Notes under the pieces: model-generated
Told to the model about the DNA's origin: nothing
The model's database searches: none
The model's input: the letters and a program-made list of their open reading frames with translations, nothing else
Source: an uncultured Holophaga sp.
GTDB taxonomy: Bacteria > Acidobacteriota > Holophagae > Holophagales > Holophagaceae
Reading direction: 5' to 3'
DNA length: 64,000 nt
Assembly (NCBI GenBank): GCA_963664825.1
Contig: OY761614.1
Coordinates: forward strand, 544,001 to 608,000
In this document: positions 17,983-55,125 of the stretch, piece after piece
How positions within the stretch are numbered: position 1 is the stretch's first letter
How the letters are laid out: each line of letters starts with the position of its first letter
Position numbers and translations under genes: made by a program

Positions 17983-18031
17983 CTTGACAAAATCTTGATG
18001 CTTTCCAGCCGAACCTTGACACCGTCTTGAT
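17983..18031 (+). promoter_or_regulatory. Two putative KdpE operators upstream of kdpF
   Basis: CTTGAC-N5-CTTGAT at 17983-17999 and again at 18015-18031 (11-bp period direct repeats). Confidence 0.65.
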
Positions 18032-18087: not shown

Positions 18088-18180
18088 ATGACAGGCATGC
18101 AGATCCTGGCCGCCATCCTGGCCCTGGCCCTCCTGGCCTACCTGGGCTTCGCCCTGCTCCAGCCGGAGAAATTCCAATGA
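18088..18180 (+). CDS. kdpF: K+-transporting ATPase subunit F (not in the ORF track)
   Basis: MTGMQILAAILALALLAYLGFALLQPEKFQ carries the YL..AL..PE.F signature; GGAGG RBS; ATGA overlap with kdpA. Confidence 0.9.
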   Translation: MTGMQILAAILALALLAYLGFALLQPEKFQ

Positions 18181-19928
18181 CCGCCAATAGCTGCGCGCAA
18201 TTCGCAGTCTTCCTGATCCTGCTCATCGCGCTCTCGAAGCCTCTGGGCGAATACATGGGCCGGGTCTTCGAACGGGAGCGCACCCTGCTCGATCCCCTGC
18301 TGAGGCCCCTGGAGCGCGGCCTCTACCGCCTGGCCGGCATCACCCCCGACGACCACATGGACTGGAAGGCCTACGCCTGGGCGATTCTGTTCTTCAATGC
18401 CCTGGGGCTCGGCTTCCTCTTCCTGCTGCTGAAGTGCCAGCACCTGCTGCCCCTCAACCCCCAGCACGCCCAAGGGCTACCCACACTCCTGGCCTGGAAT
18501 ACGGCCGTTAGTTTCGTCACCAACACCAACTGGCAGGCCTTCGCGGGTGAAACGACCCTCAGTCATCTCTCCCAGATGCTGGGGCTGACGGTGCAGAACT
18601 TCCTATCGGCGGCCACGGGCATCACGGTGGTGGTGGCCCTCTCCAGGGGCATCCGTCGCCGCAAGGCCACCAACCTGGGCTGTTTCTGGGCCGATCTCAC
18701 GCGCACGACCCTCTACATCCTGCTGCCCCTGGCCTTCATCTTCGCGATCTTCCTCCTCTCCCAGGGGGTGGTCCAGACCCTGGCCCCGCAGGCCGTGGCG
18801 CGATTTTTGACACCTGTGGTGGGGGCGGACGGGAAGACCATCCTGGAACAGATCCTGTCCCTGGGCCCCGTGGCCAGCCAGGAGGCCATCAAGCTCCTGG
18901 GCACCAATGGAGGCGGCTTCTTCAACGCCAATTCCGCCCACCCCTTCGAGAACCCCACGGCCCTCACGAGCTTCCTTCAGGCCCTCAGCATCCTGCTGAT
19001 CCCTGCGGCTCTCTGCCACGCCTTCGGCCGCATGGTGCGGGACCGCCGCCAGGGCTGGGCCCTCCTTGGGGCCATGACGGTCCTCTTCGTCCTGGCCCTG
19101 GGCGCGATCCACGGGGCCGAGCAGAGGAGCAACCCGGGACTGCGAGCCCTGCCCGTCAACCAGAGCGTGGTCGTCACCTCCGGCGCCGAACAGCCCGGAG
19201 GCAACATGGAAGGCAAGGAGATGCGCTTCGGCATCACGGCCACCACCCTCTTTGCCACCGCCTCCACGGGCACCTCCACCGGCGCCGTCAATGGCATGCA
19301 CGATTCCTTCACGCCCCTGGGGGGCCTGGTGCCCATCCTGCTGATGGAACTGGGGGAGGTCGTCTTCGGCGGCGTGGGTTCGGGCCTCTACACCCTGCTC
19401 ATCTTCGCCCTCATTGCGGTCTTCATCGCCGGACTGATGGTGGGGCGCACACCGGAATACCTGGGCAAGAAACTGGAAGCCTTCGAAATCAAGATGGCCT
19501 CCCTGGTCATCCTCATTCCGGCCGCGACCGTGCTGGTCTGCACGGCCCTGGGGGTGATGCTGCCGAGCGCGGTGATGAGCATCTCCAACCCCGGCGCCCA
19601 CGGCTTCAGCCAGGTGCTCTACGCCTTCAGCAGCGCGGCCAACAACAATGGCAGCGCCTTCGCTGGCCTGAACGCCAATACCGTTTTCTACAACACGACC
19701 ACCAGCCTCGCCATGCTATTGGGCCGCTTCGGCACCATGCTGCCGGTACTGGCCATCGCGGGCTCCCTGGGCCGCAAGAAACGGACCCCTCCAAGCGTCG
19801 GCACGCTGCCCACCCACGGTCCACTCTTCATCGCGCTCCTGGTGGCAGTGGTGATTCTCGTCGGCGCCCTCACCTTCATTCCCGCCCTGGCCCTCGGCCC
19901 CATCGCCGAGCACCTCTCCCTGACCTGA
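18177..19928 (+). CDS. kdpA: K+-transporting ATPase subunit A
   Basis: SFVTNTNWQ, LGTNGGGFF, NMEGKEMRFG, GGVGSG, NNGSAF. Confidence 0.96.
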   Translation: MTANSCAQFAVFLILLIALSKPLGEYMGRVFERERTLLDPLLRPLERGLYRLAGITPDDHMDWKAYAWAILFFNALGLGFLFLLLKCQHLLPLNPQHAQGLPTLLAWNTAVSFVTNTNWQAFAGETTLSHLSQMLGLTVQNFLSAATGITVVVALSRGIRRRKATNLGCFWADLTRTTLYILLPLAFIFAIFLLSQGVVQTLAPQAVARFLTPVVGADGKTILEQILSLGPVASQEAIKLLGTNGGGFFNANSAHPFENPTALTSFLQALSILLIPAALCHAFGRMVRDRRQGWALLGAMTVLFVLALGAIHGAEQRSNPGLRALPVNQSVVVTSGAEQPGGNMEGKEMRFGITATTLFATASTGTSTGAVNGMHDSFTPLGGLVPILLMELGEVVFGGVGSGLYTLLIFALIAVFIAGLMVGRTPEYLGKKLEAFEIKMASLVILIPAATVLVCTALGVMLPSAVMSISNPGAHGFSQVLYAFSSAANNNGSAFAGLNANTVFYNTTTSLAMLLGRFGTMLPVLAIAGSLGRKKRTPPSVGTLPTHGPLFIALLVAVVILVGALTFIPALALGPIAEHLSLT

Positions 19929-19929
19929 G

Positions 19930-20013
19930 AAGGGGGGACCGCCTGCTCGCTTCCCTCGCGATGTCCTCCCTTTGACCCCCACGTGGTGGCCAGGCAAAGC
20001 CAGTCCACCACGT
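19930..20013. repeat. Two-hairpin repeat element, copy 1 (intergenic)
   Basis: aaggggggac/gtcctccctt stem, accccc linker, acgtggtgg/ccaccacgt stem; shares aggggggaccgcc with the copy in valS. Confidence 0.65.
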
Positions 20014-20033
20014 CTGCCTTGAAAGCACGGCCC

Positions 20034-22121
20034 ATGCGCAGCTCCAGCACCTTCGGCGAGATCCAACCCCGGCCCCTGTTTGAACCCGCCATCATGAAGC
20101 GGGCCATCCTGGACGCCTTCCGGAAGCTCAATCCCCTTCATCAGATGAAGAACCCGGTGATGTTCACCGTCTGGGTGGGCAGCGTGCTGACGACCCTGCT
20201 CTTCCTCCAGTCCCTCCTGGGCCATGGGGAGGCCCGGCCGGGCTTCATCCTGGCCATCTCACTCTGGCTCTGGTTCACCCTGCTGTTTGCCAACTTCGCC
20301 GAAGCCATGGCCGAAGGCAGGGGCAAGGCCCAGGCCGATAGCCTGCGCAAGTCCAAGAAGGATGTCATCGCCAAGCTGCTGAGAGCGGAAAAATTCGGAA
20401 CGCCCACGGAAGCCATCGAAGCCTACCGCCTGCGCATCGGAGACGTGGTGCTGGTGGAGGCCGGAGACACCATCCCAGGCGACGGGGACGTGATCGATGG
20501 GGTGGCCTCCGTCAACGAGAGCGCCATCACGGGGGAATCCGCACCCGTGATCCGGGAATCCGGCGGGGATCGCAGCGCCGTCACCGGCGGCACCCTGGTG
20601 CTCTCGGACTGGCTGGTGATCCGCGTCGCCTCCAACCCCGGGGATAGTTTCCTGGACCGCATGATCGCCATGGTGGAGGGGGCCAAGCGCCGGAAGACCC
20701 CCAACGAGATCGCCCTGGATATCCTCCTGGCGGCCCTCACCATCATCTTCCTGCTGGCCACGGCAACGCTTCTCCCCTATAGCGCCTTCGCGGTGAAGGC
20801 TACCGGCCACGGCAGTCCCGTCACGCTCACGGTGCTGGTGGCCCTTCTGGTTTGCCTCATCCCCACCACCATCGGCGGCCTCCTCAGCGCCATCGGCATC
20901 GCGGGCATGGATCGCATGGTCCAGGCCAATGTCATCGCCACCTCGGGACGAGCAGTGGAAGCAGCGGGCGACGTGGACGTGCTTTTGTTAGACAAAACGG
21001 GGACCATCACACTCGGAAACCGCCAGGCCGTGGCCTTCGTGCCCGCACCGGAGATTTCCATCGCACACCTGGCCGACGCCTCCCAGCTATCGAGTCTGGC
21101 CGATGAGACCCCCGAGGGGCGCAGCATCGTGGTGCTGGCCAAGGAGGAATACGGCCTGCGGGAACGCGATATCCACGCCATGGGCGCGAAGTTCATCCCC
21201 TTCACCGCCCAGACCCGTATGAGCGGAGTCGATCTCGAGGGTCGGGAGATCCGCAAGGGTGCCGTTTCCGCCATTGAGGATTACGTCCATGGCCAGGGCG
21301 GCGAATTCCCCGAAAAGCTCCGCATCGAAGTGGACCGCATCGCCCGCCACGGCGGCACGCCCCTGGTGGTGGCCGAAGGCGCCAAGGCCCTCGGCGTGAT
21401 CCACCTGAAGGACATCGTGAAGGGCGGCATCAAGGAGCGCTTCGCCGAACTCCGCCAGATGGGCATCAAGACCGTGATGATCACCGGCGATAACCCCCTC
21501 ACAGCCGCGGCCATCGCCGCCGAAGCCGGCGTGGACGACTTCCTGGCCCAGGCCACCCCCGAGGCCAAGCTCAAGCTCATCCGGGACTACCAGGCCGGCG
21601 GACGGCTGGTGGCCATGACGGGCGACGGCACCAACGACGCCCCGGCCCTGGCCCAAGCCGACGTGGCGGTCGCGATGAATTCCGGCACCCAGGCCGCCAA
21701 GGAAGCCGGCAACATGGTGGATCTGGATTCCAATCCCACCAAGCTCATCGAGATCGTCCGCATCGGCAAGCAGATGCTGATGACCCGGGGCAGCCTCACC
21801 ACCTTCAGCATCGCCAACGATGTGGCCAAGTACTTCGCCATCATCCCCGCGGCCTTTGCCGTCACCTATCCCCAGCTGGCCGTGCTCAACGTGATGCGCC
21901 TCCATAGCCCGGGGAGCGCCATCCTGTCGGCGGTGATCTTCAACGCCCTCATCATCGTGGTCCTCATTCCCCTGGCTCTGAAGGGCGTCAAATACCGCCC
22001 CATGGGCGCCGCAGCCCTCCTGCAACGCAACCTCTTCGTCTACGGTCTGGGCGGCGTCCTCGTCCCCTTCGCCGGGATCAAGGTCCTCGATCTGATCCTG
22101 GTCGCCCTCCATCTGGTGTAG
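20034..22121 (+). CDS. kdpB: K+-transporting ATPase subunit B
   Basis: TGES, DKTGT, TGDN, GDGTND. Start placed downstream of the repeat element; alternative GTG at 19983. Confidence 0.95.
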
Positions 22122-22123
22122 CC

Positions 22124-22693
22124 ATGTCCATCATCCGTCCCGCCCTGGTCACCTTCGCCGCCCTCGCGGTCCTCACGGGCTTGGCCTATCCCCTGCTCGT
22201 CACAGGCACCGGCAGGCTCTGCTTCAGGCACCAGGCCCAAGGCAGCCTCATCATCCAGGAGGGTCGCGTTCTGGGCAGCGAACTCATCGGACAGCACACG
22301 GAAGATCCGAAGTACTTCTGGGGTCGGCTTTCGGCCACGGGAGATTTCCCCACCAATGCCGCCAATTCCGGCGGTTCCAACCTGGCCCCCAGCAATCCGG
22401 CCCTGGCTGCCACCGCACAACGACGCATCCAGGTTCTCCGGAAAGCCGATCCCGGCAACACTCAGGCCCTGCCCGTGGATCTCGTCACGGCCTCCGCCAG
22501 TGGCCTGGACCCTCATATCAGTCCTGCTGCGGCGGCCTACCAGGTGGCCCGGGTGGCCCGGGTACGGGGATTACCGGTTTCCAGAGTCCAGGCACTGGTC
22601 AAGCAGCATACCCAGGGCCGCACATTCGGATTCCTGGGGGAACCTCGGGTCCATGTCCTCCAGCTCAATCTCGAGCTGGATGGCCAACGGTAA
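22124..22693 (+). CDS. kdpC: K+-transporting ATPase subunit C
   Basis: GSELIGQ, SGGSNL, VTASASGLDPHIS. Confidence 0.95.
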   Translation: MSIIRPALVTFAALAVLTGLAYPLLVTGTGRLCFRHQAQGSLIIQEGRVLGSELIGQHTEDPKYFWGRLSATGDFPTNAANSGGSNLAPSNPALAATAQRRIQVLRKADPGNTQALPVDLVTASASGLDPHISPAAAAYQVARVARVRGLPVSRVQALVKQHTQGRTFGFLGEPRVHVLQLNLELDGQR

Positions 22694-22725
22694 AGGTCCA
22701 GACAGGATCAGGCCTCCAAGGTCCC

Positions 22726-25494
22726 GTGATCGAGATAAAAAGAAAAGGTATTGGCTATTCCGTGACGGCCCCTAAGCTTGAGATTGTGGAACCTAAACGG
22801 CCTGATCCCGATGCCCTCCTCCGGAAAGTCCAGGAGGATGAAGCGCGACAGGCCCGGGCCAAGCTGAAGATATTCTTCGGCATGGCGCCGGGGGTGGGGA
22901 AGACCTACGCCATGCTCCAGGATGCCCAGGACCGCCTGGATCAGGGCCTGGACGTGATCATCGGCGTGGTGGAGACCCATGACCGCCCGGAGACCGCCGC
23001 CCTGCTCGCGGGACTCAAGACCCTGCCGAAACGCACCCTGCCCTACCGGGGGATCAGCCTGGAGGAGTTCGATCTCCAGAGCGCCATCCTGCGAAAGCCC
23101 CAGCTGATCCTCATGGACGAATTGGCCCACACCAATGTGCAGGGTTCCATCCATGGCAAACGCTGGCAGGACGTGTGGGATCTCCTGGACGCCGGCATCG
23201 ATGTCTACACCACCGTCAACGTCCAACACATCGAGAGCCTCAAGGATATCGTCGCCCAGATCACGGGGGTCATCGTGCGGGAGAGCATCCCCGATACGAT
23301 CCTGGCCCGGGCCGACGAGATCGAACTGGTGGATCTGCCCCCGGAGGAGCTCATCCAGCGCCTGAGGGAGGGCAAGGTCTACGTCCCCGATCAGGCCCGG
23401 CATGCCATCGACCGATTCTTCCGGAAGGGAAACCTCCTGGCCCTGCGGGAACTAGCCCTGCGGCGCACGGCCGACCACGTGGATGCCGATATGCGGCGCT
23501 ACATGTCCGACCAGGGCATCGCCCAGACCTGGGCAACGGACGAGCGCCTGCTGGTCTGCATCAGCCCGGCCCCGGAATCCGCCCGGCTCATCCGCGCCAC
23601 CCAGCGCCTGGCCGAACGCATCAAGGCCAGTTGGATCGCGGCCTACGTGGAAACGGGCCAGTTACGCCACTCGGAGAAGGACCGGGAGCAGATCGAGGAG
23701 CATCTGCGCCTGGTGGAGCGCCTGGGAGGCGAGACCGCCGTCCTCCAGGGGGATCTCTCCCTGGCCGACGATCTGGTGGCGCTGGCCATCACCCGCAACG
23801 CCACGCGGATCCTGGTGGGCAAGCCTGGAGGACCCGCCTGGGCGCGGCTCTTCAGGCCTTCCATCGTGGATAAATTGGTGCGCAGCTGCGGCAGCATCGA
23901 TGTGATGGTCGTTGCCCGGGACCGCAATCCGGAGGCCGTTCCCTCAAGGACGCCGACGCCACGGCCCCATCCCTTTCCCGCCGCGGGGCGCTTCCTCTGG
24001 GCCGCGCTGGTGGTGGCCCTCGCCACAGGCATCGGGCTGCTGATGCAGATGCAGCGCTTCGAATTCGCCGATATTGTCATGGTCTATGTGCTGGGCATCC
24101 TCATCGTGGCCACCCGCGTGGGGCGCTGGCCTTCGGTGGGGGCTTCCCTCCTCAGCGTGGCCGCCCTGGATTTCTTCTTCGTGAGCCCCAAATACTCCTT
24201 CCGGTTTTCCGACGCCAAGCACGCGGGCACCTTCCTGGTGATGCTGGCCGTGGGCATCGTCATCGGCAACCTCAGCGAGCGCATCCGCGCCCAGGTGCGC
24301 CTCGCCCGGGTCCGGGAGCGGCGCACCCACGCCCTCTTCAGCCTGACGGCCGAGCTCACCCGCAGCGGAGGATCGGCCCTCATGGTGCAATCCGCCATCC
24401 ACAATGTGGCCGCCCAGTTCCAGAGCCAGGCTTCCATCCTGCTGCCCAATGCCCAAGGGAACCTCAAACCCCAGACGGAATCCGAATGGTCCGGCGGCTT
24501 CAGCGCCGAGGAGCTGGGCGTGGCCCAGTGGACCTTCGATCACGTCGAGGCCGCGGGCCTGGGCACCGACACCCTGCCTGGTGCAAAGTCCCTGTACCTG
24601 CCCCTGAGGGGTTCCCGGGGCTCCATCGGCGTCCTGGCCATGCGCCCCGAAGGCCCCCCCCATTGGATGGAGCCCGATCAGCGCCATCTGCTGGACGCCT
24701 TCGCCAGCCAGACGGCCCTGGCCCTGGAGCGGGCCCTCCTCTCGGAAAGGAGCACCAAGACCCAGCGCCAGGTGGATCGCGAACAGCTTCGAAACGCCCT
24801 GCTGTCCTCGGTCTCCCACGATCTCCGCACACCCCTGGGCTGCATCCTGGGCGCCGCCAGCACCCTCCTGGAAAGCCAGGCGCAGCTGGGACCGGAGGAG
24901 CGGAAGGAACTGATGGAGACCATCCACGGTGAGGCCCTTCAGCTCCAGCGCCTGGTGTGCAATCTCCTGGACGTGACGCGCCTGGAATCAGGCGTGGTGG
25001 AGGTGAAGAAGGAGTGGGTGCCCGTGGAGGAACTCGTCGGCACGGCCCTGGAACGCCTGAAGCGCGTGCTGGGCTCCCGGGAAATCAAGGTGGAGCTGCC
25101 GCCCAAACTCCCCCTCATCCCCATGGACCCCGTGCTGATGGAACAGGTGCTGGTGAACCTGCTGGAGAATGCGAGCAAATACTCCCCCGCCGATCAGCCC
25201 ATCGAGATCCGGGCCTGGGCCACGGATCGTGCCCTCACCCTCGCCATCGCCGATCACGGCAGCGGCCTCCCCGAGGGACTCGAGGAGAAGATCTTCGATA
25301 AGCTCGTCAAGGCCGCCAATCCCCATGGCCGCCCGGGTGCGGGTCTGGGGCTCGCCATCTGCAAGGGCATCGTGAGGGCCCATGGCGGCTGGATCCAGGG
25401 CAGCAACCGTCCCCAGGGCGGCGCCCAGTTCCTCGTGAGCCTGCCCCTGGAGGCCCCTCCGCCCGAGACCCCGGAAGAAGGCGAGAATGCCTGA
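22726..25494 (+). CDS. kdpD: Sensor histidine kinase KdpD (full length)
   Basis: GMAPGVGKTYAML, DELAHTN, USP domain, 4 TM, GAF, SHDLRTPL. True start may be a GTG up to ~60 nt downstream. Confidence 0.95.
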   Translation: MIEIKRKGIGYSVTAPKLEIVEPKRPDPDALLRKVQEDEARQARAKLKIFFGMAPGVGKTYAMLQDAQDRLDQGLDVIIGVVETHDRPETAALLAGLKTLPKRTLPYRGISLEEFDLQSAILRKPQLILMDELAHTNVQGSIHGKRWQDVWDLLDAGIDVYTTVNVQHIESLKDIVAQITGVIVRESIPDTILARADEIELVDLPPEELIQRLREGKVYVPDQARHAIDRFFRKGNLLALRELALRRTADHVDADMRRYMSDQGIAQTWATDERLLVCISPAPESARLIRATQRLAERIKASWIAAYVETGQLRHSEKDREQIEEHLRLVERLGGETAVLQGDLSLADDLVALAITRNATRILVGKPGGPAWARLFRPSIVDKLVRSCGSIDVMVVARDRNPEAVPSRTPTPRPHPFPAAGRFLWAALVVALATGIGLLMQMQRFEFADIVMVYVLGILIVATRVGRWPSVGASLLSVAALDFFFVSPKYSFRFSDAKHAGTFLVMLAVGIVIGNLSERIRAQVRLARVRERRTHALFSLTAELTRSGGSALMVQSAIHNVAAQFQSQASILLPNAQGNLKPQTESEWSGGFSAEELGVAQWTFDHVEAAGLGTDTLPGAKSLYLPLRGSRGSIGVLAMRPEGPPHWMEPDQRHLLDAFASQTALALERALLSERSTKTQRQVDREQLRNALLSSVSHDLRTPLGCILGAASTLLESQAQLGPEERKELMETIHGEALQLQRLVCNLLDVTRLESGVVEVKKEWVPVEELVGTALERLKRVLGSREIKVELPPKLPLIPMDPVLMEQVLVNLLENASKYSPADQPIEIRAWATDRALTLAIADHGSGLPEGLEEKIFDKLVKAANPHGRPGAGLGLAICKGIVRAHGGWIQGSNRPQGGAQFLVSLPLEAPPPETPEEGENA

Positions 25495-26245
25495 AGGAAA
25501 GGCCCAGCTCCCGGAGGCCGCCGACCCAAAACGGCCTGGACCCGGCTTCGCCCTGGGGTCCCCCCACATCCTCGTCATCGACGACGAGCCCCCCATCCGG
25601 CGCTACCTCAAGGCCACCCTGGAGGCTCAAGGGTACGTCCTCCGGGAGGCCACCACGGCCGCCGAGGGCGAGGCCCTGGCCCTCAGCCATCCCCCGGATG
25701 TGATCCTGCTGGATCTGGGCCTGCCGGACCTGGATGGCATCGAGCTGGCCCGGCGCCTGCGGATGGAGTGCCCCTCGCCCATCATCGTGATCTCGGCCAG
25801 GGGCCGGGAGGCCGACAAGATCCAGGCCCTGGACGCCGGCGCCGATGACTACCTGACCAAGCCCTTCAGCACCGGCGAACTGATGGCGCGGATTCGCGTG
25901 GCCCTGCGCCACGGGAGAAGGGGCGGCAACGCCCCGGAGGAACCCGTCTTCGAACTGGGCACCTGGCGCGTGGACTTGTTGCGCCGGGAGGTCACCCTGG
26001 CGGGCCAGAGCGTCCACCTCACGCCCAACGAATACCGCCTGTTCACCACCCTCATCGCCAACGCAGGCAGGGTCCTCACCCATCGCCAGCTGCTCAAGGA
26101 GGTCTGGGGCGGCGTGGCCGGAGCCCAGCCCCACTACCTCCGTGTCTACATGGCCCAGCTTCGCCAGAAACTCGAAGCCGAGCCCGCCCGGCCCCGGTAC
26201 CTGATCACCGAACCGGGTGTGGGATACCGCTTGAGGGTGGAGTAG
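25487..26245 (+). CDS. kdpE: Response regulator KdpE
   Basis: LLDLGLPDLDG, GADDYLTKPF, HYLRVYMAQLRQKLE, TEPGVGYR. Confidence 0.93.
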   Translation: MPEGKAQLPEAADPKRPGPGFALGSPHILVIDDEPPIRRYLKATLEAQGYVLREATTAAEGEALALSHPPDVILLDLGLPDLDGIELARRLRMECPSPIIVISARGREADKIQALDAGADDYLTKPFSTGELMARIRVALRHGRRGGNAPEEPVFELGTWRVDLLRREVTLAGQSVHLTPNEYRLFTTLIANAGRVLTHRQLLKEVWGGVAGAQPHYLRVYMAQLRQKLEAEPARPRYLITEPGVGYRLRVE

Positions 26246-36876: not shown

Positions 36877-36969
36877 TTCAAGTTCTCCTCATGGTCGTGG
36901 CCACCAACAGGGCGGACCAGACTTTAGCATCACGTGGGCCGCCGTGAACGCTGCCTGGATTCGTGGAAA

Positions 36970-45645: not shown

Positions 45646-46995
45646 CTACAATCCCAGCAGTTCCCTCAGCCGAGGCACCGCCCCCCGGCGGACCTTGAGT
45701 TCCAGATGTTCCCCGACCCGTGCCCTGGCGCGTCCCCCGAAGGCCGGTCTGAGGGCCACCACGGTCTCGGGGTGCAGCAGCACATGGCGCTGGATCCGCA
45801 GGAACAGGGTGTGCCGAAAGACCTCTTCCACCTCCCCCAGGTTTCGCCAGGAGGTGCCATAGCGCTTCTCCTGGCACCAAGCCCACACATGGTCATCCCT
45901 TTCCTCGAAATGGGTGGTCTGCTTCAGGTCCAGGGTCAGGCGCCGATCCCCGGACAGGGCGGTATAGGCATCCGGAGGGCTCGGAATCTCGGGCTCGAGA
46001 GGTTTCGGCACCCTGGGTTCCAGCGTCTCCGAAGACTGGATGGGCAGGGAAGGTGCCTTCGGTTTCCCCTTTGCCCTGGGCGATTTAGATTCCTCAAGGC
46101 GTGGCTTCGGTGAGCCCTCCAGACCCACCTCCATCCGGCAGGCGCGGAAGAGGGCCGAGAGATCCTGGGCGCCGAGTCCCTTGGCCTTGGCGGCCTTGAG
46201 CCTCTGAGAGAGGAGATCTGCCATCGGCAAGACGATGCCCATCTCCTCCAAGGCCCGGAAGACCCATTGGGTGCCCTGCATCGCCTGCTCCAGGCTCAGA
46301 TCCGCGGGCTCGAAGGCGTGGCGCACCATCAGGCCGCCATAGGTATCCATCATGGGGGACTTGAAGATCGCGGTATTGAGAAGGCGCAGGAATTCCGCAG
46401 GTGGCAGGCCCGCCTTTTCGCCCAAGGCCAGGACCTCGGCAAGCCCCTCCACCACGACCGCCGTCAGCATATCGCCTCCCAATTTCACGGCGTGGGCCAC
46501 TTCTGGAACGAGGCCCACCCGCGTCAGACCGCGCCCCAACGCGTCAAAGATTCCGAGGCAGCGGGTCACGGGAGCCTCGGCGCCCCCCACCACGATCCAG
46601 AGATGACGGGAGGCCGCCGCGCCGGGCCTGCCGAAGACCGGTGCTGCCACGTATCCCTGGCCCTTCTCACCGTGGGCTGCGGCCAGGTTCCGGGAGGTCT
46701 CCACACCGAGGGTGCTCATGCAGAGATGGATGGCCCCTGGTGGGAGATGGACGAGAAGCCCGGAGGGACCAAAGGTGAGAGCCTCTTCCGCCCCGTCGCC
46801 AGCCACCATGGTGAGGGCGACCTGGGCCTCGCCAACGGCCTCGGCCACCGTCGAGGCGATGCGCCCCACGGTGGAGCCAAGCTCGAGGGCTCGGGCTGGG
46901 GTGCGGTTGTAGAGCGTGACTTGGTGCCCGACCGCGGCAAGGTTACGCGCCATGGGAGCACCCATCCTGCCCAGCCCAAGGACCGCGATGCGCAT
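45646..46995 (-). CDS. Beta-hydroxyacid dehydrogenase family protein fused to C-terminal LytTR domain
   Basis: GLGRMGAPMA, YNRT, APVFG, VKL; C-terminal LGEVEE...FLRIQRHVLLH...LKVRR...LRELLGL. Confidence 0.78.
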   Translation of the reverse strand: MRIAVLGLGRMGAPMARNLAAVGHQVTLYNRTPARALELGSTVGRIASTVAEAVGEAQVALTMVAGDGAEEALTFGPSGLLVHLPPGAIHLCMSTLGVETSRNLAAAHGEKGQGYVAAPVFGRPGAAASRHLWIVVGGAEAPVTRCLGIFDALGRGLTRVGLVPEVAHAVKLGGDMLTAVVVEGLAEVLALGEKAGLPPAEFLRLLNTAIFKSPMMDTYGGLMVRHAFEPADLSLEQAMQGTQWVFRALEEMGIVLPMADLLSQRLKAAKAKGLGAQDLSALFRACRMEVGLEGSPKPRLEESKSPRAKGKPKAPSLPIQSSETLEPRVPKPLEPEIPSPPDAYTALSGDRRLTLDLKQTTHFEERDDHVWAWCQEKRYGTSWRNLGEVEEVFRHTLFLRIQRHVLLHPETVVALRPAFGGRARARVGEHLELKVRRGAVPRLRELLGL

Positions 46996-47119
46996 GGGAC
47001 CTCCGGAAGCCCCCATCCTAGCCCCTCGCCCCCGGAGAATGTCCCTCAAAAATGGACGCCCAAAAAGGCTTCGGCGCCCTAGAAACAGGACGCCGAAGCC
47101 ATCAGAAGAGGGAGGCCGA

Positions 47120-48370
47120 TCAGAGCCCCTGGGGGTAGGCTTCCTCGCCGTGCAGTTCGGCGTCGAGGCCATGTTCTTCGGCTTCCTTGTCCACCCGGAC
47201 AGGCGTGATGCGGTCGATGATCCAGAGCATCCCGTAGGTGAAGCAAAAGGCCCAAATGGAGGAGACCGCCACGGCCACCAGCTGCTTGAAGAAGAAGCTC
47301 GTGCCTCCACCCATGAGGAGACCGTTGGTCACAATGGCGGGGTTCCATTCCTTAGCCGCGAAGAGGCCCAAGAAGATCACGCCGATGAAGCCCCCCACAC
47401 CGTGGACGCCCCAGACATCCAGCGCGTCATCCCAGCCCAGCTTGTTCTTCATGGCCACGGCGTAGAAGCAGATGCAGCCCGCCATGATGCCGATGAGGGC
47501 CGCAACCGCAGGGCTCACGTAGCCCGCACAGGGTGTAATGGTGGCCAGACCCGCCACAGCCCCCGTGAGCAGGCCCACGAGCTTGGGCTGCTTGGCATTC
47601 ATCCATTCGATCATCAGCCAGGTGGCCGCAGCGAAGGAGGCGGCGATATCGGTATTCAGGAAGGCGGAGGCGGTGATGCTATCCACGCGCAGTTCGGAAC
47701 CTGCATTGAAACCGTACCAACCGAACCAGAGAAGGCCCGTGCCCAGTGCGATGAGGGGCACGTTGTGGGGGATGTTTTCGACCACCTTGCGGCGGCCCAC
47801 GTAGAGGATGGAGGCCAGGGCCGCGAGACCGGCTGTGTTATGCACCACGATGCCGCCGGCGAAGTCCAGCACACCCCACTTGGCCAGGATGCCCTCGGGG
47901 CTCCACACCATGTGAACGAAGGGGAAGTAGACGAAGATCAGCCAGGCCGTGAGGAAGAGGAAGTAGGCCTTGAAGGTGACGCGATTGGCGAAGGCACCGG
48001 TGATGAGGGCCGGCGTGATGATGGCGAACATCATCTGGTAGGCCACATGGACGATGAGGGGAATGCCCGCGTCGTTGCCCGTGAACATCGTATGGAGGGT
48101 GATATTACGCAGGAAGGCGTAGTGGCCGGGGTGGCCCACGATGCCGTGCCAGGTGGGGCCAAAGCACATGGAATAGCCGAAGGCGAACCAGAGCACCGTG
48201 GTCCAACCCAGGCTCACGAAGCTCTGGGTCATGATCGTCAGCACGTTCTTGCGGCCCACCAGGCCGCCGTAGAAGAACGCGAGGCCAGGCGTCATCAGCA
48301 TCACGAGGCTGGCGCATATCAGCATGAAGGCGGTATTGCCGAGATTGATCGGCATGGGAGCGGGATTCAC
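47120..48370 (-). CDS. amtB: Ammonium transporter Amt, copy 1
   Basis: MTPGLAFFYGG, DFAGGIVVH, WYGFNAGS, DDALDVWGVHG, GLD..LHGEEAY; GAGGAGG before GTG. Confidence 0.95.
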   Translation of the reverse strand: MNPAPMPINLGNTAFMLICASLVMLMTPGLAFFYGGLVGRKNVLTIMTQSFVSLGWTTVLWFAFGYSMCFGPTWHGIVGHPGHYAFLRNITLHTMFTGNDAGIPLIVHVAYQMMFAIITPALITGAFANRVTFKAYFLFLTAWLIFVYFPFVHMVWSPEGILAKWGVLDFAGGIVVHNTAGLAALASILYVGRRKVVENIPHNVPLIALGTGLLWFGWYGFNAGSELRVDSITASAFLNTDIAASFAAATWLMIEWMNAKQPKLVGLLTGAVAGLATITPCAGYVSPAVAALIGIMAGCICFYAVAMKNKLGWDDALDVWGVHGVGGFIGVIFLGLFAAKEWNPAIVTNGLLMGGGTSFFFKQLVAVAVSSIWAFCFTYGMLWIIDRITPVRVDKEAEEHGLDAELHGEEAYPQGL

Positions 48371-48550
48371 AAAACCTCCTCGGGGGGGTGAAGGAAAGGG
48401 AATGGGATCGGAACGGCGGGATAGAGCTCCCGCCGCTCCCGTTCAAAACCGGAAGCAGCCGGTACATGCGGGACGGGTGAACCCCACCAGGCTTCCAGGC
48501 GCCTGCGCCAGGGCTGGAGGGTCGAAGATATTTAACCCTAGGCCTGGATT

Positions 48551-48590
48551 TTTATGCCATCTTTACGCGTATTTTTACGTGATTTTTACA
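48551..48590. promoter_or_regulatory. Four-half-site OmpR/KdpE-type operator upstream of amtB copy 1
   Basis: TTTATG, TTTACG, TTTACG, TTTACA at 48551/48562/48574/48585. Confidence 0.7.
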
Positions 48591-48649
48591 CCGCTCCCAG
48601 TGGGGAGGGCATGCCTTGGATTGCGGTGCCTCCTCCCCCCAAAAAGGGA

Positions 48650-48679
48650 GGGACCCCAGGCCTGATGACCTGGGGTCCC
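48650..48679 (-). terminator. Terminator-like hairpin after the porin gene
   Basis: gggaccccagg-8 nt-cctggggtccc, with a nearby T-run on the minus strand. Confidence 0.6.
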
Positions 48680-48706
48680 CGCTTTGTCGTGCCTTTGGGA
48701 ACGGCT

Positions 48707-49873
48707 TCAGAAGCTGGTGCCGAAGCTCCACGTGAGGCTGGTGGCGTCCCGGAAGGACTTGAACCCATCGGAAACGCCCGACAGGACGTCCTTATTCAGG
48801 CTATCGCGGCGCACTTCCAGGCGGCTGAAGGTGGCGGCCCATTTTCGTTCCAGGCCGAGGGCCACGGACGTGGCCTTGAGGTTGGCGTTCAGGAGCCCTG
48901 CGAAGGCCGTCCCAGCGGCATTGACCAGGCTCCCATTGATGCTGGGATCGGCCAAGAGGCGGACACCCTTGTCATCCTTCAGATACTCGCCCCGGGCGAA
49001 GAGGGCCCAGCGCTCATCGAGCTGAAGCTTGTAGATGGCACCGAGGCCTGACCAAGCAGCCTTCACATCACCCTGCCCCGCAGCGCCACGGATGGCCTCG
49101 GCAGCGAAGGACTCCTGACCGTATTCCAATTCCCACTGGAGCGTCGACGCTCCCCAAACCCACTGACCCAGAATGCAGGCTCGTTCCCGAGGACGTCCCT
49201 CGGCACCCGTATTGACGCTAGCCTGCTCGACGCCGCGGTAGACCATCAAGGACGCGAATTTGTCCGCAGCTCCTGCATGGTTGTAGGTCAGACCCAGTCC
49301 CAGGGTCTTGCCCTTGTTGTTGTCCCGCACCCGGTCCTCACCGTTGAAAGCCCAGACGTCCGTGCTCCAGGAGGACGTGAAGGCGTGGTGCCAGTTGATC
49401 CCCACCTGGGCAAAGGGATCGGCGTAGGTATAGAGGAGCCCTCGGCTGGCGGTCACATCCTGGGTGTGGTCCACGACCTCCATGCCAAGACTGGTCCACA
49501 TGCGCCCGAGCTTCACCGTGTCATGGCCCCCTGTCCAGATGAGCATGGCCTCCGGATAGGCGATGGAACCCGTCTCCTGGGCGTTGGTGGCGTTCAGGAC
49601 CTTCGCGCTCTGTCCCCCTAGCACCGTGAACTTGGCCGACCAGCCCTGGGCGAGGGTGACGTCGGCGCCGAACTGGAGGCCATCCAGGGCGATCTGGCCC
49701 TCTCCCGCGTCCACACCCCGCAGGAAGAGGCCGTCATCGGTGGTCTGGCGGTCGGAGGCGGCCCCGGAGGCCCACACGGCCCCTCTCCACTTGATGGATG
49801 GGCCCGGTACCGTTTGGGCTACGAGCAGCGCCCCCGTCGAGGCGAGAAGGGTGAGTAGGAGCGGATATCGCAT
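48707..49873 (-). CDS. Outer-membrane beta-barrel porin (BBP2/DUF1597-like)
   Basis: Signal peptide, GRMWTSLGME, SRGLLY...PF, NG...DNNKGK, RGEYLKD, RLEVRRD, terminal Phe. Confidence 0.75.
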   Translation of the reverse strand: MRYPLLLTLLASTGALLVAQTVPGPSIKWRGAVWASGAASDRQTTDDGLFLRGVDAGEGQIALDGLQFGADVTLAQGWSAKFTVLGGQSAKVLNATNAQETGSIAYPEAMLIWTGGHDTVKLGRMWTSLGMEVVDHTQDVTASRGLLYTYADPFAQVGINWHHAFTSSWSTDVWAFNGEDRVRDNNKGKTLGLGLTYNHAGAADKFASLMVYRGVEQASVNTGAEGRPRERACILGQWVWGASTLQWELEYGQESFAAEAIRGAAGQGDVKAAWSGLGAIYKLQLDERWALFARGEYLKDDKGVRLLADPSINGSLVNAAGTAFAGLLNANLKATSVALGLERKWAATFSRLEVRRDSLNKDVLSGVSDGFKSFRDATSLTWSFGTSF

Positions 49874-50060
49874 GGTTTCCTCGAAGGGCAAGGGGTGAAA
49901 GGCGGATCATCGACGGGCCCAGGGGGCTCCCCGAACAGAAGGGCAGACCTCCATCTAGGGGGCGGCGACCCACAGACAGTCTGTTGGCGCATTCTGCCAC
50001 CTTTTGAGCCCCACCGAATCATCGAAGGCCTACCCCTGCGAAGGGCGACATGGTTCTGTT

Positions 50061-50100
50061 TTTATGGAATTTTTGCACGAGCATTTACCTGATTTTTACG
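50061..50100. promoter_or_regulatory. Second four-half-site operator between porin and amtB copy 2
   Basis: TTTATG, TTTGCA, TTTACC, TTTACG at 50061/50072/50084/50095; same 11-12-11 spacing as 48551-48590. Confidence 0.7.
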
Positions 50101-50353
50101 CACATATCCAATTAGCCTTTGGAAGGCCACTCCATGCCTTTGGGGTGTCACCGCTAGAGTTGCTCCCCATGGCCGCAGCCTTTCAATTTTTTTCAATATG
50201 GGGCCTGGCCTAGTGCTGCGATTCGTTCATGCCAATAGTTAAATGTATTGTCCATATTGCGACGTCACTCACACGGAACTCGAAAAGCCTTTTACCAAAA
50301 GGCACCACGAAACCCCTTCACAACCACGGACCTTCATTCCAGAGGAGAACGAA

Positions 50354-51577
50354 ATGACCCCCGCTTTAGACACAGGCAATGTAGCCTTCATGCTAGTTGC
50401 CGCCAGCTTGGTGATGCTCATGACACCCGGGTTGGCCTTTTTCTACGGTGGACTGGTCGGCCGCAAGAATGTGCTGGCGATCATGATCCAGAGCTTCGTA
50501 TCCATGGGCTGGACCACCTTCCTCTGGTGGGCCTGCGGGTATTCCCTCGTCTTCAGCGGCGGGGAGGGCGCCATCATCGGCAACCTCAAACTCGCCTTCA
50601 TGCATGGCGCCATGCCGACGGATATCCATGTCGCCAGCGGGATGCCCCTCTTCGTGGTCTTCGTCTACCAGATGATGTTCGCCATCATCACCCCCGCCCT
50701 GATCACGGGCGCCTTCGCCAACCGGATCAAGTTCTCGGCCTACCTGATATTCCTCACCCTGTGGATGCTCTTCGTCTACTTCCCCATCGCCCACATGGTC
50801 TGGGGCGGAGGCCTCTTCGCGAAGTGGGGCGTGCTGGACTTCGCCGGCGGCACGGCCGTCCATGCCACGGCCGGGTTCGCCGCTCTGGCTTCCGTGATCT
50901 ACGTCGGCAAGCGGAAATTCGCCGACAAGGGTCCCCACAGCATTCCCCTGGCGGCCCTCGGCACGGCCCTGCTCTGGTTTGGCTGGTACGGCTTCAATGC
51001 CGGCAGCGAGATGAAGGTCGATCACGTCACCATCACCGCGTTCATCAACACCGATATCTGCGCCTCCATTGCCGCCATCACCTGGCTGGCCATCGCCTGG
51101 AAGTTCGAGAAGAAGCCCAAGTTCGTGGGCCTTCTCACGGGCGCCGTGGCGGGCCTGGTGGCCATCACCCCCGCTGCGGGCTATGTCAGCATCAATGGGG
51201 CCGTGGTCATCGGCGTAATCGTCAGCGTCATCTGCTACCTGGCCGTAGAGCTCAAGAACAAGATGGGCCTCGATGACGCCTTGGATGTCTGGGGTGTCCA
51301 CGGCGTCGGTGGCGTGGTGGGCTGCATCTGCACGGGCATCTTCGCCACCAAGCTCTGGAACCCCGCCGGGGCCGATGGCCTCCTCCGCGGTGGCACCCAT
51401 TTCTTCTGGATGCAGGTCCTCAGCGTGGCCATCACCGCCGCTTACGCCTTCGTGTTCAGCTACGTGGCCCTCTGGCTCATCAATAAGGTGACCCCCGTAA
51501 AGGTGACCCCCGAGGAAGAAGAAGAAGGGCTCGATACCGCCATGCACGGCGAAGAGGCCTACATCTCCATCGACTAA
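50354..51577 (+). CDS. amtB: Ammonium transporter Amt, copy 2
   Basis: GAGGAG RBS; MTPGLAFFYGG, DFAGGTAVH, WYGFNAGS, DVWGVHG, EEGLD..MHGEEAY. Confidence 0.95.
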   Translation: MTPALDTGNVAFMLVAASLVMLMTPGLAFFYGGLVGRKNVLAIMIQSFVSMGWTTFLWWACGYSLVFSGGEGAIIGNLKLAFMHGAMPTDIHVASGMPLFVVFVYQMMFAIITPALITGAFANRIKFSAYLIFLTLWMLFVYFPIAHMVWGGGLFAKWGVLDFAGGTAVHATAGFAALASVIYVGKRKFADKGPHSIPLAALGTALLWFGWYGFNAGSEMKVDHVTITAFINTDICASIAAITWLAIAWKFEKKPKFVGLLTGAVAGLVAITPAAGYVSINGAVVIGVIVSVICYLAVELKNKMGLDDALDVWGVHGVGGVVGCICTGIFATKLWNPAGADGLLRGGTHFFWMQVLSVAITAAYAFVFSYVALWLINKVTPVKVTPEEEEEGLDTAMHGEEAYISID

Positions 51578-51596
51578 AAGACCCGTTCAGACAGAG

Positions 51597-51629
51597 AGGA
51601 GGGGCGGCGCCCGAGGCGCAGCCCCTCCT
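51597..51629 (+). terminator. Hairpin after amtB copy 2
   Basis: aggaggggc-g-gcgcc-cga-ggcgc-a-gcccctcct. Confidence 0.55.
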
Positions 51630-51718
51630 TCTGCCTAGGGCTCCCTTTCATACACGCGGCCTTCGAGGCCTCCGCCCATGAGATCATCTGAGAAGCAGTC
51701 CTCAGGAGCGAAACCCGG

Positions 51719-53686
51719 ATGAACAACGCGTTCCCGAACGATACCTCGCCCATCCTGGTGGCCCTGGGCTCCGAGGCGCGCACCCTGCGCCTCGTGCATG
51801 TGGGCTTCCGGATGGCCCGGGAACAGGGCCGCCCCTGGGTGGCCGTCCACGTGGAGGTGATGGGCTGGGAGACGGCCGAAGAGGCTGACCAGGCCAGGGT
51901 CTGGCTGCAGGAGGCCCATGAACTCGGGGCCGAAGTGACCTGGGTGAAGGCCTCGAGTGTCGTCAATGGGTTGGTGGTGGAAGTCCGCAGGCGCTTGGCC
52001 TCCACCCTCATCATGGGCAAGAGCGCTCCCCAGGGCCTCTGGGGGCGCCTGGAACACTCCAAGGCCCAGGGCATCCTGCGCCGCACGCCGGATCTCCGCA
52101 TCCTGGCCCTGGCCCTCGACGCTTCCACCCCCAAGGGCGAGGCCTTTCAAAGCCTCGAAGACACCATCGGCATCTACCTGGCCATGGCCGTGCTCCTGGT
52201 AGTCTGCACCATTGGAGCCGCGGCCTTCTCTGCGGCCATCGGATTCCCGGCAATCCCAGCCGTCTTCTCCATGGGCGTAGCCTTCGTGGCCTATCGATGG
52301 GGCCGCCGGATCTCCATTCCCGCCACCCTGCTGAGCGCCCTGTTCTACGACTATTTCCTCGAAAACCGCTTCAGTTTCTTCATTGAAGACTGGCTCAAAT
52401 TCTTCTACTTCCTGGGCACCCTCGTCACCGTGCAGGTGCTGGTGGACCTGGTGCGCCGACTGCATCTCGAGACCCGTGCCGGTCGGCGGCGGGAGGCCGA
52501 AACCGTCCTCCTGATGCTCCTGGGCCGAGCCCTGGCCCGGTGTTCCACGATCCAGGAGGTCTCGGAGGTCCTCTCCCGCCGCTTGCAGAGCCTCTTCCAG
52601 TGCAAGGCCAGCCTGCTGATCCCCGGGGAGGGAGACACCTGGATCCGCATGCCGGAATGCACCAACATCCCGGACTGCCCGCCCCCCAGTGAACTCCTGC
52701 CCGAATTCAGCCACGCCTCCACCCGGGAGGATCCCCTGGAACCCCTGTTCCGGGAGGGGTGTTCCTTCGTCTCCCTGGCCAGCACCGGGGGCACGGAAGG
52801 GCTGCTTCGGATGCGGCTGGCGAACGACGCGAAATTCCCCCAGGAGTCCTGGGGTTCCCTCCAGGCCTTCGCCATCCAGGGCACCCTGGCCCTGGAGCGG
52901 GTGCGCTGGGTGGAGGCCGCCCAGAGCGCCCACCTGGAAAGCGAGACGGAGCGCATGCGCAGTTCCCTGCTCAGCTCCATCTCCCATGATCTGCGCACGC
53001 CCCTGGCCGGGATCCAAGGGGCGGCCAGCAGCCTCCTCCTCCCGGCCACCCTGCCCGAATCCACCCGGCGCGACATGCTCTCCATGATCCACGACGAAAG
53101 CGAGCGCCTGGCCCAGCTCATCGGCAATCTCCTGGATATCACGCGCCTGGAGAGCGGAGCCATCCAGCTTCGCAAGGAATGGCAGCCGTTGGGCGAAGTG
53201 GTGGGAGCGGCCCTGCGGCGGGCCGAATCCGGCAGCGGCCTCCAGAATGTCCGGCTGGATCTCCCCGAAGATCTCCCCCTGGTCCCCCTGGACGCGGTGT
53301 TGGCCGAGCAGCTCCTGATCAACCTCCTGGTGAACGCCCGGCGCCATGCCCCCGAGAGCCCCGTGGAACTGAGGGCTTGGCCCGAATCAGAGAGCCTCGA
53401 ACTGGAGATCGCCGATCGAGGCCCCGGCATTCCCCAGGCCTACCGTGAACGCATTTTCGATAAATTCTTCCGACTCCCGGCCTCGACGGCCGGGGATGGC
53501 GGAGTGGGCCTGGGCTTGGCCATCTGCCATGCCATCGCCAAGGCCCACGGAGGGAGGATCTGGGTCGAGGATCGAAGCGGCGGGGGGGCCTCCTTCCGGG
53601 TCTCCCTCCCCCTCACAGGCACGCCCCCCCCGCCCCCGGATTCCGAGCCCCCCCCCGAAGAGGAGTGTCCATGGCCCTGCCCCTGA
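51719..53686 (+). CDS. KdpD-like sensor kinase lacking the N-terminal KdpD domain (USP-DUF4118-GAF-like-HisKA-HATPase)
   Basis: ILVAL...RLV...WVAVHVE aligns with the KdpD USP domain; 4 TM; SHDLRTPL; NLLDITRLESG; GLGLAIC. Confidence 0.85.
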   Translation: MNNAFPNDTSPILVALGSEARTLRLVHVGFRMAREQGRPWVAVHVEVMGWETAEEADQARVWLQEAHELGAEVTWVKASSVVNGLVVEVRRRLASTLIMGKSAPQGLWGRLEHSKAQGILRRTPDLRILALALDASTPKGEAFQSLEDTIGIYLAMAVLLVVCTIGAAAFSAAIGFPAIPAVFSMGVAFVAYRWGRRISIPATLLSALFYDYFLENRFSFFIEDWLKFFYFLGTLVTVQVLVDLVRRLHLETRAGRRREAETVLLMLLGRALARCSTIQEVSEVLSRRLQSLFQCKASLLIPGEGDTWIRMPECTNIPDCPPPSELLPEFSHASTREDPLEPLFREGCSFVSLASTGGTEGLLRMRLANDAKFPQESWGSLQAFAIQGTLALERVRWVEAAQSAHLESETERMRSSLLSSISHDLRTPLAGIQGAASSLLLPATLPESTRRDMLSMIHDESERLAQLIGNLLDITRLESGAIQLRKEWQPLGEVVGAALRRAESGSGLQNVRLDLPEDLPLVPLDAVLAEQLLINLLVNARRHAPESPVELRAWPESESLELEIADRGPGIPQAYRERIFDKFFRLPASTAGDGGVGLGLAICHAIAKAHGGRIWVEDRSGGGASFRVSLPLTGTPPPPPDSEPPPEEECPWPCP

Positions 53687-54357
53687 TACTACTCATCGAG
53701 GACGAGGCCACCCTCCGCCGCTTCCTGGCCCCCACCCTGCTCAACCAGGGCTACCAGGTCATCCAGGCCACCACCGGAGCCGAGGGGCTCACCATGGCCC
53801 GCAGCTACAACCCGGACTTGGTGCTTCTGGACCTGGGGCTCCCGGATCAGGATGGCCTCAAGGTGCTCGAAGGCATCCGCTCCTGGAGTCGGCGTCCCAT
53901 CCTCATCCTCTCGGCACGCAATCAGGAGCGCGTGAAAGTCCACGCCCTGGACCTGGGCGCCGACGACTACCTCACGAAACCCTTCGGGGCCCCAGAGCTC
54001 CTGGCGCGGATCCGGGTGGCCCTGCGCCACTCCGTGCAGGACCTCAACCCGGAATTGGTCTTCGATCAGGGAGGCCTGCGGGTGGACTTCGAGCGGCGGG
54101 AGGTGAGTCTGGAGGGGCGCTCCATCCATCTCACGGCCCTGGAATACCGTCTGTTGGAAGCCCTCGTCCAGCGCGTCGGCAAGGTGGCCACCCACGCCCA
54201 GCTGCTGGCCGATGTGTGGGGTCCCAGCGGTGAAGGCCAGAACCACTACCTCCGCATCTACATGGCCCAGCTGCGCAAGAAGCTCGAGGCCGACCCCAAC
54301 CGCCCGAGGTTCTTCCTCACGGAACCCGGGGTGGGCTACCGACTGAATGCAGAGTGA
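53671..54357 (+). CDS. KdpE-like response regulator (second paralogue)
   Basis: LLDLGLPDQDG, GADDYLTKPF, HYLRIYMAQLRKKLE, TEPGVGYR. Confidence 0.9.
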   Translation: MALPLILLIEDEATLRRFLAPTLLNQGYQVIQATTGAEGLTMARSYNPDLVLLDLGLPDQDGLKVLEGIRSWSRRPILILSARNQERVKVHALDLGADDYLTKPFGAPELLARIRVALRHSVQDLNPELVFDQGGLRVDFERREVSLEGRSIHLTALEYRLLEALVQRVGKVATHAQLLADVWGPSGEGQNHYLRIYMAQLRKKLEADPNRPRFFLTEPGVGYRLNAE

Positions 54358-54989: not shown

Positions 54990-55125
54990 GGAGGCACCTC
55001 GTGCTTTCTTTATCGGCCGAGGAGGGACATTCCTGGAGTAACAAAGGAGGAAAGCCCAAGGTCCCTTTAGACCTTGGGCTTTCATGGGGCGCCTCCTGGG
55101 ATTCAAGTAAGACCAAGGGCCCCAC

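Follow-up and report, generated by a model that had tools for sequence, protein, structure and literature searches.

Bacterial ammonium uptake is usually controlled from within the cell, via glutamine, 2-oxoglutarate and P-II, and glnK-amtB operons are under NtrBC/sigma-54, GlnR, AmtR or NtcA. The window analysed here, a 64,000-nucleotide stretch of contig OY761614.1 from an uncultured Holophaga sp., raises the question of whether ammonium uptake can be governed by a relative of the K+-responsive KdpD/KdpE system. An earlier interpretation made from the letters alone (the sequence-only reading) had described two intact ammonium transporters (Amts) and a porin next to a second KdpD/KdpE pair, here called KdpD'/KdpE', with a complete kdpFABCDE about 21 kb away, and had proposed that the pair was repurposed to drive ammonium uptake. 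All five genes of the module and the complete kdp operon were located.

47120..48370, minus strand: amt1, ammonium transporter of 416 amino acids (aa) (TIGR00836, 422.6 bits against a cut-off of 343.3; PF00909)
48707..49873, minus strand: porin, a BBP2/OmpL-like outer-membrane beta-barrel of 388 aa with a C-terminal Phe (PF07642, expectation value (E) 1.5e-29, 103.8 bits against a cut-off of 26.2)
50354..51577, plus strand: amt2, second ammonium transporter of 407 aa (TIGR00836, 427.1 bits against a cut-off of 343.3; PF00909)
51719..53686, plus strand: kdpD', short KdpD-family histidine kinase (best NCBIfam match KdpD)
53671..54357, plus strand: kdpE', OmpR-family response regulator (best NCBIfam match KdpE, 247 bits against a cut-off of 325, which the canonical copy also misses with 258)
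18088..26245, plus strand: canonical kdpFABCDE, complete, with a full-length KdpD carrying PF02702 (profile matches)

Comparison across related genomes suggests that a Kdp offshoot uncoupled from the K+ pump most likely controls ammonium uptake at this locus without the usual nitrogen regulators. The KdpD'E'-amt module is conserved and apparently undescribed: in line with the sequence-only reading, literature searches, with subscription papers and supplements outside their scope, showed no KdpDE paralogue controlling amt.

The short kinase gene kdpD' was found in 63 of 133 Holophagaceae genomes. An amt gene (at least 60% identity, upstream, within 8 kb) accompanied 60 of the 64 kdpD' matches and the other four matches lay at contig ends, so that the gene-neighbourhood survey suggested with the sequence-only reading showed the linkage of amt with KdpD'E' to be conserved in this family. 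Fifty-four of the linked loci have the amt divergent from the kinase gene, mostly at a distance of 130-260 bp, and six have a tandem amt2 together with a divergent amt1 like the window, whose amt2-kdpD' order was found in five other genomes. From these counts, the conserved core is a divergent amt next to kdpD'-kdpE', with the porin optional. The amt1 of the window is the orthologue of the amt that is divergent from kdpD'E' across Holophagaceae; ten genomes carry an amt1 orthologue without kdpD' and were used as controls. The kinase subfamily is discrete, with six 50%-identity clusters scoring 307-570 bits and the next one 190. The source taxa given among the 120 listed of 125 KdpD' homologues were all Holophagaceae, whereas two matching loci were labelled Solibacteraceae and Actinomycetes. 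The module occurs in Geothrix rubra, G. limicola and G. oryzisoli, and the kinase in Mesoterricola silvestris and M. sediminis. A kdpA match was absent in 9 of the 63 genomes with the pair.

The proposal of a joint outer- and inner-membrane uptake module is less well supported. The porin gene is the sole copy found in the source genome (a single contig of 3.47 Mb, 96.55% complete), and its product is 50-61% identical to porins encoded downstream of amt1 in relatives. Of the 43 other linked loci, 21 have such a porin downstream of amt1, as do 3 of the 10 control loci without the pair; it thus travels with amt, and a tie to the kinase was not borne out. Among the loci mapped, only the window has the porin between two amt genes. 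The protein collection also contained three Amt-BBP2 porin fusions (P0394, P0395 and P0397), which may be real or frameshift artefacts.

The intergenic regions of the module contain two arrays of KdpE-type half-sites that had escaped the sequence-only reading, and several terminator-like hairpins.

48551..48590: box A, predicted KdpE-type array TTTATG, TTTACG, TTTACG, TTTACA with spacing 11, 12 and 11, forming two tandem dimer sites upstream of amt1
50061..50100: box B, predicted KdpE-type array TTTATG, TTTGCA, TTTACC, TTTACG with spacing 11, 12 and 11, in the divergent porin/amt2 region
48528..48534, minus strand: candidate -10 element of amt1, TAAATAT, imperfect, 39-40 nucleotides (nt) from the distal and 16-17 nt from the proximal box (sequence reading and spacing analogy)
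17983..18031, plus strand: two CTTGAC-N5-CTTGAT boxes upstream of kdpF, at which the canonical KdpE likely acts
47067..47100, minus strand: terminator-like hairpin and U tract 3' of amt1 (z -5.3; 0 of 200 shuffles fold equally well)
48649..48680, minus strand: terminator-like hairpin 3' of the porin gene, between porin and amt1 (z -3.9)
51589..51634, plus strand: amt2/kdpD' intergenic hairpin without a clear U tract, a weak terminator or RNA stabiliser (z -2.1 for 51578-51718; 7 of 200 shuffles equal)

With terminators after both the porin gene and amt1, amt1 would be transcribed by itself under box A. Of the two dimer sites, the proximal one coincides in part with the expected -35 region and could either add activation or act as a shut-off. 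Box B would serve the porin gene or amt2 and is a candidate for either. The two arrays are the only ones with four half-sites of this architecture in the source genome, and the strict repeat TTTAC-N6-TTTAC has two copies in that genome, both inside the module. No sigma-70 promoter was found by a consensus scan of the region. A consensus scan of the three intergenic regions gave no sigma-54 motif either, in agreement with the sequence-only reading, though rpoN is present in the genome.

Across genomes the box comes and goes with the pair. The pattern TTTAYN-N5-TTTAYN was present within 450 bp of the amt1 start at 33 of 34 usable starts (from 37 loci) and at all four further linked loci. It was absent from all 10 amt1 orthologues in genomes without kdpD', present at 2 of 6 unlinked amt copies from genomes having the pair, and absent from all 30 kdpA upstream regions. 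Within one genus (g5) a tighter pattern was found in all 39 genomes with the kinase and in 1 of 23 without it, mostly as a single copy per genome, which suggests a regulon of about one promoter. A variant pattern of the kdpF promoter occurred within 1.5 kb upstream of kdpA in 19 of 30 cases, a descriptive figure because the pattern was derived from those same sequences. In many family members the region upstream of kdpA (L111-L140) also contains an open reading frame (ORF) for a small membrane protein ahead of kdpF, and in several there are CTAAC/CTTAAC boxes in opposite orientation.

The amt-type box resembles the E. coli kdpF box TTTATA-N5-TTTACA. The E. coli KdpE box consists of two 6-bp half-sites within a footprint at -72 to -50 (PMC3264566). 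In the Holophagaceae the box is A-rich on the sense strand in 32 loci, with a -10-like hexamer, [TC]A...T, exactly 39 nt downstream in 27 of them; this orientation differs from that in E. coli and is likewise that of the KdpE site of M. smegmatis (PMC5401905). Taken together, the conserved linkage, a box that follows the pair and a different box at kdpF strongly support the proposal that the second pair acts on amt and not on kdpF. We consider it very probable, from this comparative evidence, that KdpD'/KdpE' controls amt and that phosphorylated KdpE' (KdpE'~P) acts at the amt promoter.

KdpE' is 55% identical to the canonical KdpE and has the recognition helix HYLRIYM, as in E. coli KdpE. The R193 and T215 positions are kept, as is, in the alignment, the Arg that we read as R200. 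The base-contact position (I194 in E. coli) is occupied by Ile in 8 of 8 KdpE' sequences and by Val in 11 of 11 canonical Holophagaceae KdpE sequences; this position is equivalent to a base-contacting residue of PhoB (PMC3264566).

KdpD' matches residues 252-886 of the 895-residue KdpD profile and is 33% identical to the canonical KdpD. Since the match starts at 252, the N-terminal KdpD domain is missing, and PF02702, the serine-kinase domain, was absent in KdpD' and present in the canonical copy. This domain is described as a serine kinase inhibiting KdpB (PMC11018627), and its loss is as expected for a kinase uncoupled from the pump. The remaining architecture comprises a Usp-like domain (profile match with E 0.002, below the cut-off), four transmembrane (TM) helices (DUF4118), a GAF domain, HisKA with H423, and HATPase. 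Usp and GAF were assigned from sequence profiles and predicted secondary structure. The N-terminal 400 residues matched only the solved KdpD fragments 4QPR, 7JI4 and 2KSF (GAF, Usp and TM), and the best PDB match of the catalytic core was 6LGQ, also KdpD. An AlphaFold model (mean predicted local distance difference test score, pLDDT, 76; predicted template modelling score, pTM, 0.37) had an order of elements that fits the Usp-TM-GAF layout, and generic kinase cores were among the matches listed by a Foldseek search. When Amt1 and the N-terminal part of KdpD' were predicted as a complex, the scores were 0.02, 0.34 and 0.01, which count neither way.

Conservation in KdpD' differs between output and input. 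The H-box H-D-x-R-T-P was conserved in 100% of 115 KdpD' sequences. The loop motif P..[TS][FL].[VIFL], at what we take to be the K+ loop positions P466, T469, L470 and V472 of KdpD, was found in 3 of 115 KdpD' sequences versus 51 of 66 full-length KdpDs, 23 of 32 other short KdpDs and 16 of 16 canonical KdpDs from Holophagaceae. The second periplasmic loop of KdpD is described as sensing external K+ (bioRxiv 2023.07.05.547876). In the GAF domain, D-P-L-E-P (D 84%, P 97%, E 94%, P 99%) takes the place of the motif G-T-D-T-L. As far as profiles and conserved residues indicate, the inputs of KdpD' are rebuilt and its catalytic core is maintained, and the remodelled K+-sensing parts would fit a changed signal. 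The kinase phylogeny against canonical KdpD, proposed with the sequence-only reading, placed KdpD' in a clade of its own. It was monophyletic (Shimodaira-Hasegawa-like approximate likelihood ratio test, SH-aLRT, 100) on a long stem outside the canonical KdpDs of the family, with an unplaced attachment point; this tree and that of the Amts were quick searches without bootstrap.

The presumed target is, by its sequence, an intact ammonium channel. Amt1 and Amt2, the only Amts in the source genome, are 62% identical and keep W148 and S219 of the ammonium site, F107 and F215 of the Phe gate, D160, and the twin His H168 and H318 (E. coli numbering, in an alignment to E. coli AmtB from locus L223) as well as the C-terminal G..HG..Y. 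By profile and residues, both are intact assimilatory-type Amt/Mep proteins, for which transport is predicted; the AmtB equivalog NF007947 was not reached (324 and 355 bits against a cut-off of 657). In the quick tree the two sit in separate subclades of a single Amt clade that is well set apart (55 of 70 rows, SH-aLRT 100), and a recent duplication was therefore rejected. Residues diagnostic of this clade against other Amts are Glu at E. coli position 220 (55 of 55) and Asp at 235 (54 of 55); Asn replaces Glu121 in 54 of 55 members.

Absence of P-II, a point of the sequence-only reading, holds for the source genome and its genus: no P-II was found in the source genome or in eight other genomes of the same genus. 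No glnK was present at the 57 examined Holophagaceae loci with a kdpD'-linked amt or at 24 other Acidobacteriota loci of the Amt clade. Among metagenome loci (the best 80 of at least 601 matches), glnK occurred at two, each time beside a second, canonical amt. The six genomes with a tandem amt2 all lack P-II. In the source genome, GlnD, NtrC over the cut-off, NifH, urease and Kup were not found, and two glutamine-synthetase-family matches were present besides rpoN. Two different genes of this family lie convergently at G000:C1:1084510-1087173 (L052, L053), with no regulator noted nearby.

The wider Amt clade tends to bring its own two-component system, and KdpD'E' would be one such recruit. 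At 62 of the best 80 metagenome loci the immediate neighbours included a BBP2 porin in 14 cases and a co-directional NarL-type regulator in 8, the latter accompanied by cytoplasmic or dCache kinases. In several lineages a conserved cytoplasmic HisKA_3 kinase and a NarL-type regulator stand directly beside clade amts (L142, L143, L147, L159, L165, L182, L189, L195, L254, L256-L259). This kinase has the motif ERVKELTALH...PPAWQYPE and an N-terminal domain without a convincing Pfam match (one copy scanned), and is, with its regulator, a candidate second ammonium-linked two-component system. Upstream of clade amts at L145:2013-4073, L207:1374-3470 and L212:1456-3255 are a NarL-type regulator and HAMP-HisKA_3 kinases, of which two match dCache_1 weakly; these kinases are candidate periplasmic amine or ammonium sensors.

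The proposed mechanism starts from intact genes and a kinase that keeps its H-box. Comparative evidence argues strongly that KdpE'~P would bind TTTAYN-N5-TTTAYN some 40 nt ahead of the -10 element of amt and activate amt1; the source genome has a second array in the stretch that separates the starts of porin and amt2. KdpD' no longer has the domain for switching the Kdp pump off, and the two regions with which E. coli KdpD senses K+ are remodelled in it, changes that may signify a new input. By analogy with KdpD, which is silenced by the transported cation, NH4+ would push KdpD' towards phosphatase activity and NH4+ scarcity would turn uptake on. This control would be independent of P-II, GlnD, NtrC and sigma-54. 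Three points lead us to hold, with moderate confidence, that ammonium is the signal: the ammonium channel that is the target is intact, KdpD' has lost K+ features, and the genome already has a K+ sensor. On balance we lean towards KdpD'/KdpE' being a dedicated KdpDE-derived system that tunes transcription of a GlnK-independent Amt to ammonium supply. The fuller picture is plausible, if a little short of probable: KdpD' would be a K+ sensor kinase switched to NH4+, forming with KdpE' and the box a family-wide ammonium circuit independent of P-II/NtrC, and would be one of several unrelated kinases recruited by a GlnK-independent Amt clade that may couple ammonium flux to K+ and pH homeostasis.

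Several findings weigh against such a circuit. P-II is present in 41 of the 63 genomes with the pair, in the loci examined beside canonical amts, which would make a second circuit for nitrogen limitation partly redundant; the absence of P-II is therefore not general among pair-bearing genomes, and the module as a general replacement of P-II was rejected. The sample is marked by kinship, 39 of the 63 pair-bearing genomes coming from one genus, and since many loci are close relatives the linkage and box counts overstate independence. The amt1 -10 element is imperfect, and no matching -10 was found for the porin gene or amt2. The relaxed two-half-site pattern is not rare by itself, with 23 genome matches against 20 in a reversed control, and the weight thus rests on the cross-genome comparison. 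The KdpD' loop of the window (EN-RFSFFIED) retains part of the canonical pattern, and KdpD kinase chains with TM and GAF domains have been suggested to be always K+-controlled (PMC11018627). Moreover, 5 of 103 Amt-clade loci outside Holophagaceae touch K+-uptake genes, in five separate subclades. At L205:97-10981 the amt and a BBP2 porin gene lie between kdpC and kdpD, in the order kdpABC-amt-porin-kdpDE; at L148:334-7358 a short KdpD, which retains the canonical K+ loop motif, and KdpE are divergent from a gene for a KimA-like K+ permease, with amt and a porin gene next in line; L211 has kdpFAB divergent from a porin-like gene and amt; and L183 and L258 are two Bacteroidota-type kdp loci. The probability of this by chance is about 1e-5, a rough estimate that assumes a Kdp prevalence of 0.7 and 4 Mb genomes and has no equal-size canonical-amt control. 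Finally, the sister group of the clade in the quick tree, known from two loci only, belongs to plasmid-borne enterobacterial urease/yut clusters of Hafnia alvei (L221:2088-13218, with hdeAB acid chaperones) and Providencia rettgeri (L222:11980-25212, with an ion-channel gene). These recurring Kdp and urease ties keep readings based on K+ and pH alive.

If the signal were still K+ or the K+/NH4+ ratio, K+ limitation would call on the Amt to import NH4+ as a stand-in cation, to vent NH4+ leaked via K+ carriers, or to carry K+ itself. The KdpD ancestry with retained TM and GAF domains and the five K+-uptake loci speak for this, as does the reported response of Kdp to NH4+ in both E. coli and M. 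smegmatis (PMC5401905). We nevertheless judge it unlikely, though deserving of real weight, because 112 of 115 KdpD' sequences have lost the loop motif and the GAF motif is replaced, both of which persist in other short KdpDs. The K+ sensor already present would make a new sensor and a new box unneeded for K+ control of amt, and 98 of the 103 clade loci have no Kdp neighbour. The twin-His and selectivity residues, which exclude K+ when intact, are intact in both Amts. A role in acid or pH homeostasis, with KdpD' sensing low pH or a linked cue and Amt and porin buffering the cell or periplasm by moving ammonia through both membranes, appears quite improbable. It would suit the sister Amts of the urease/yut clusters, the extra conserved acidic residues at positions 220 and 235, and the pH-dependent change in E. 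coli kdpFABC expression (PMC5401905), but the source genome has no urease, no ureC match was found in the 80 metagenome or 57 Holophagaceae loci, and a urease link would serve nitrogen scavenging equally well.

The pair might also control amt via an indirect cue at Usp or GAF, such as a nucleotide, a nitrogen metabolite or the transport state of the Amt, in place of a free ion. The conserved residues of KdpD' cluster in the cytoplasmic Usp and GAF domains (invariant columns and D-P-L-E-P) and the periplasmic loop varies. Elsewhere in the Amt clade, amts come together with cytoplasmic kinases and NarL-type regulators, and the Usp domains of S. aureus KdpD bind c-di-AMP (PMC8534201). We find this very unlikely all the same: helix 1 of Amt1 resembles that of the transporter Af-Amt1 and has neither the sensor-type Glu nor the bulky pore residues seen in helix 1 of Ks-Amt5, and, as weak evidence, no Amt-KdpD fusion occurred among the 120 listed of 264 longer Amt proteins. 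It seems hardly credible that the pair is a spare or decaying KdpDE acting on kdpF or on nothing, with amt as a chance neighbour. Cross-binding of KdpE and KdpE' is possible because their recognition helices are nearly identical, but the 60 of 64 linkage, a box that tracks the pair and is absent from the kdpA upstream regions, the invariant H-box and the keeping of the pair in the nine genomes without a kdpA match all argue against this.

The module shares with E. coli KdpD/KdpE the Usp-TM-GAF-HisKA-HATPase layout of the kinase, the OmpR-type regulator with its HYLRIYM helix, and 6-bp direct repeats with an 11-bp spacing, which lie roughly 50-70 bp ahead of the inferred start. Judged on its genes, the pair lies outside canonical KdpDE in its missing serine-kinase domain, its remodelled loop and GAF motifs and its linked target, predicted to be amt instead of kdpFABC, and a full KdpDE with its own box variant coexists with it. 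Split KdpD systems, with serine and histidine kinase on two chains, are common in Acidobacteriota and Chloroflexota (PMC11018627), and their histidine-kinase chain likewise lacks the N-terminal domain. These chains belong to kdp operons, whereas KdpD' adjoins amt, keeps Usp and has a separate full-length KdpD beside it in the genome; other short KdpDs mostly keep the K+ loop motif and KdpD' mostly does not. With glnK-amtB operons the module shares an Amt channel whose residues are canonical and which is often accompanied by an outer-membrane porin, but the examined kdpD'-linked loci have no glnK and would be controlled by a local membrane sensor kinase. Ks-Amt5 of Ca. Kuenenia stuttgartiensis is, like KdpD', a case of a histidine kinase proposed to read ammonium; there, according to PMC5764959, the Amt domain is itself the sensor and does not transport, whereas here a separate KdpD-derived kinase is involved and no fusion.

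Other genes of the window were noted in passing. Next to the module, 45646-47310 (minus strand) encodes a 3-hydroxyisobutyrate-dehydrogenase-like protein fused to a C-terminal LytTR-like domain (E 2.6e-5), and this fusion gene adjoins amt/porin in genomes of the same genus too. ORFs without a convincing Pfam match, including one for a Ser-rich protein of 205 aa and one for a protein of 774 aa, lie at 54489-55710 (minus strand) and 33874-36927 (plus strand). A 1969-aa DUF4011/helicase/REase_MTES_1575 protein, possibly defence-related, is encoded at 3202-9111 (plus strand).

If true, a KdpD offshoot wired to the amt promoter would be a route separate from P-II control of ammonium uptake, and also a natural experiment in the change of ion specificity of a K+ sensor. 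Where KdpD binds K+ is as yet ill-defined, and a genome with both the canonical and the derived kinase points to two segments relevant to ion specificity. Should the signal still be K+, the circuit would tie ammonium transport genetically to K+ limitation. With a box nearly identical to that of E. coli and named species that carry the module, either outcome should be easy to test.

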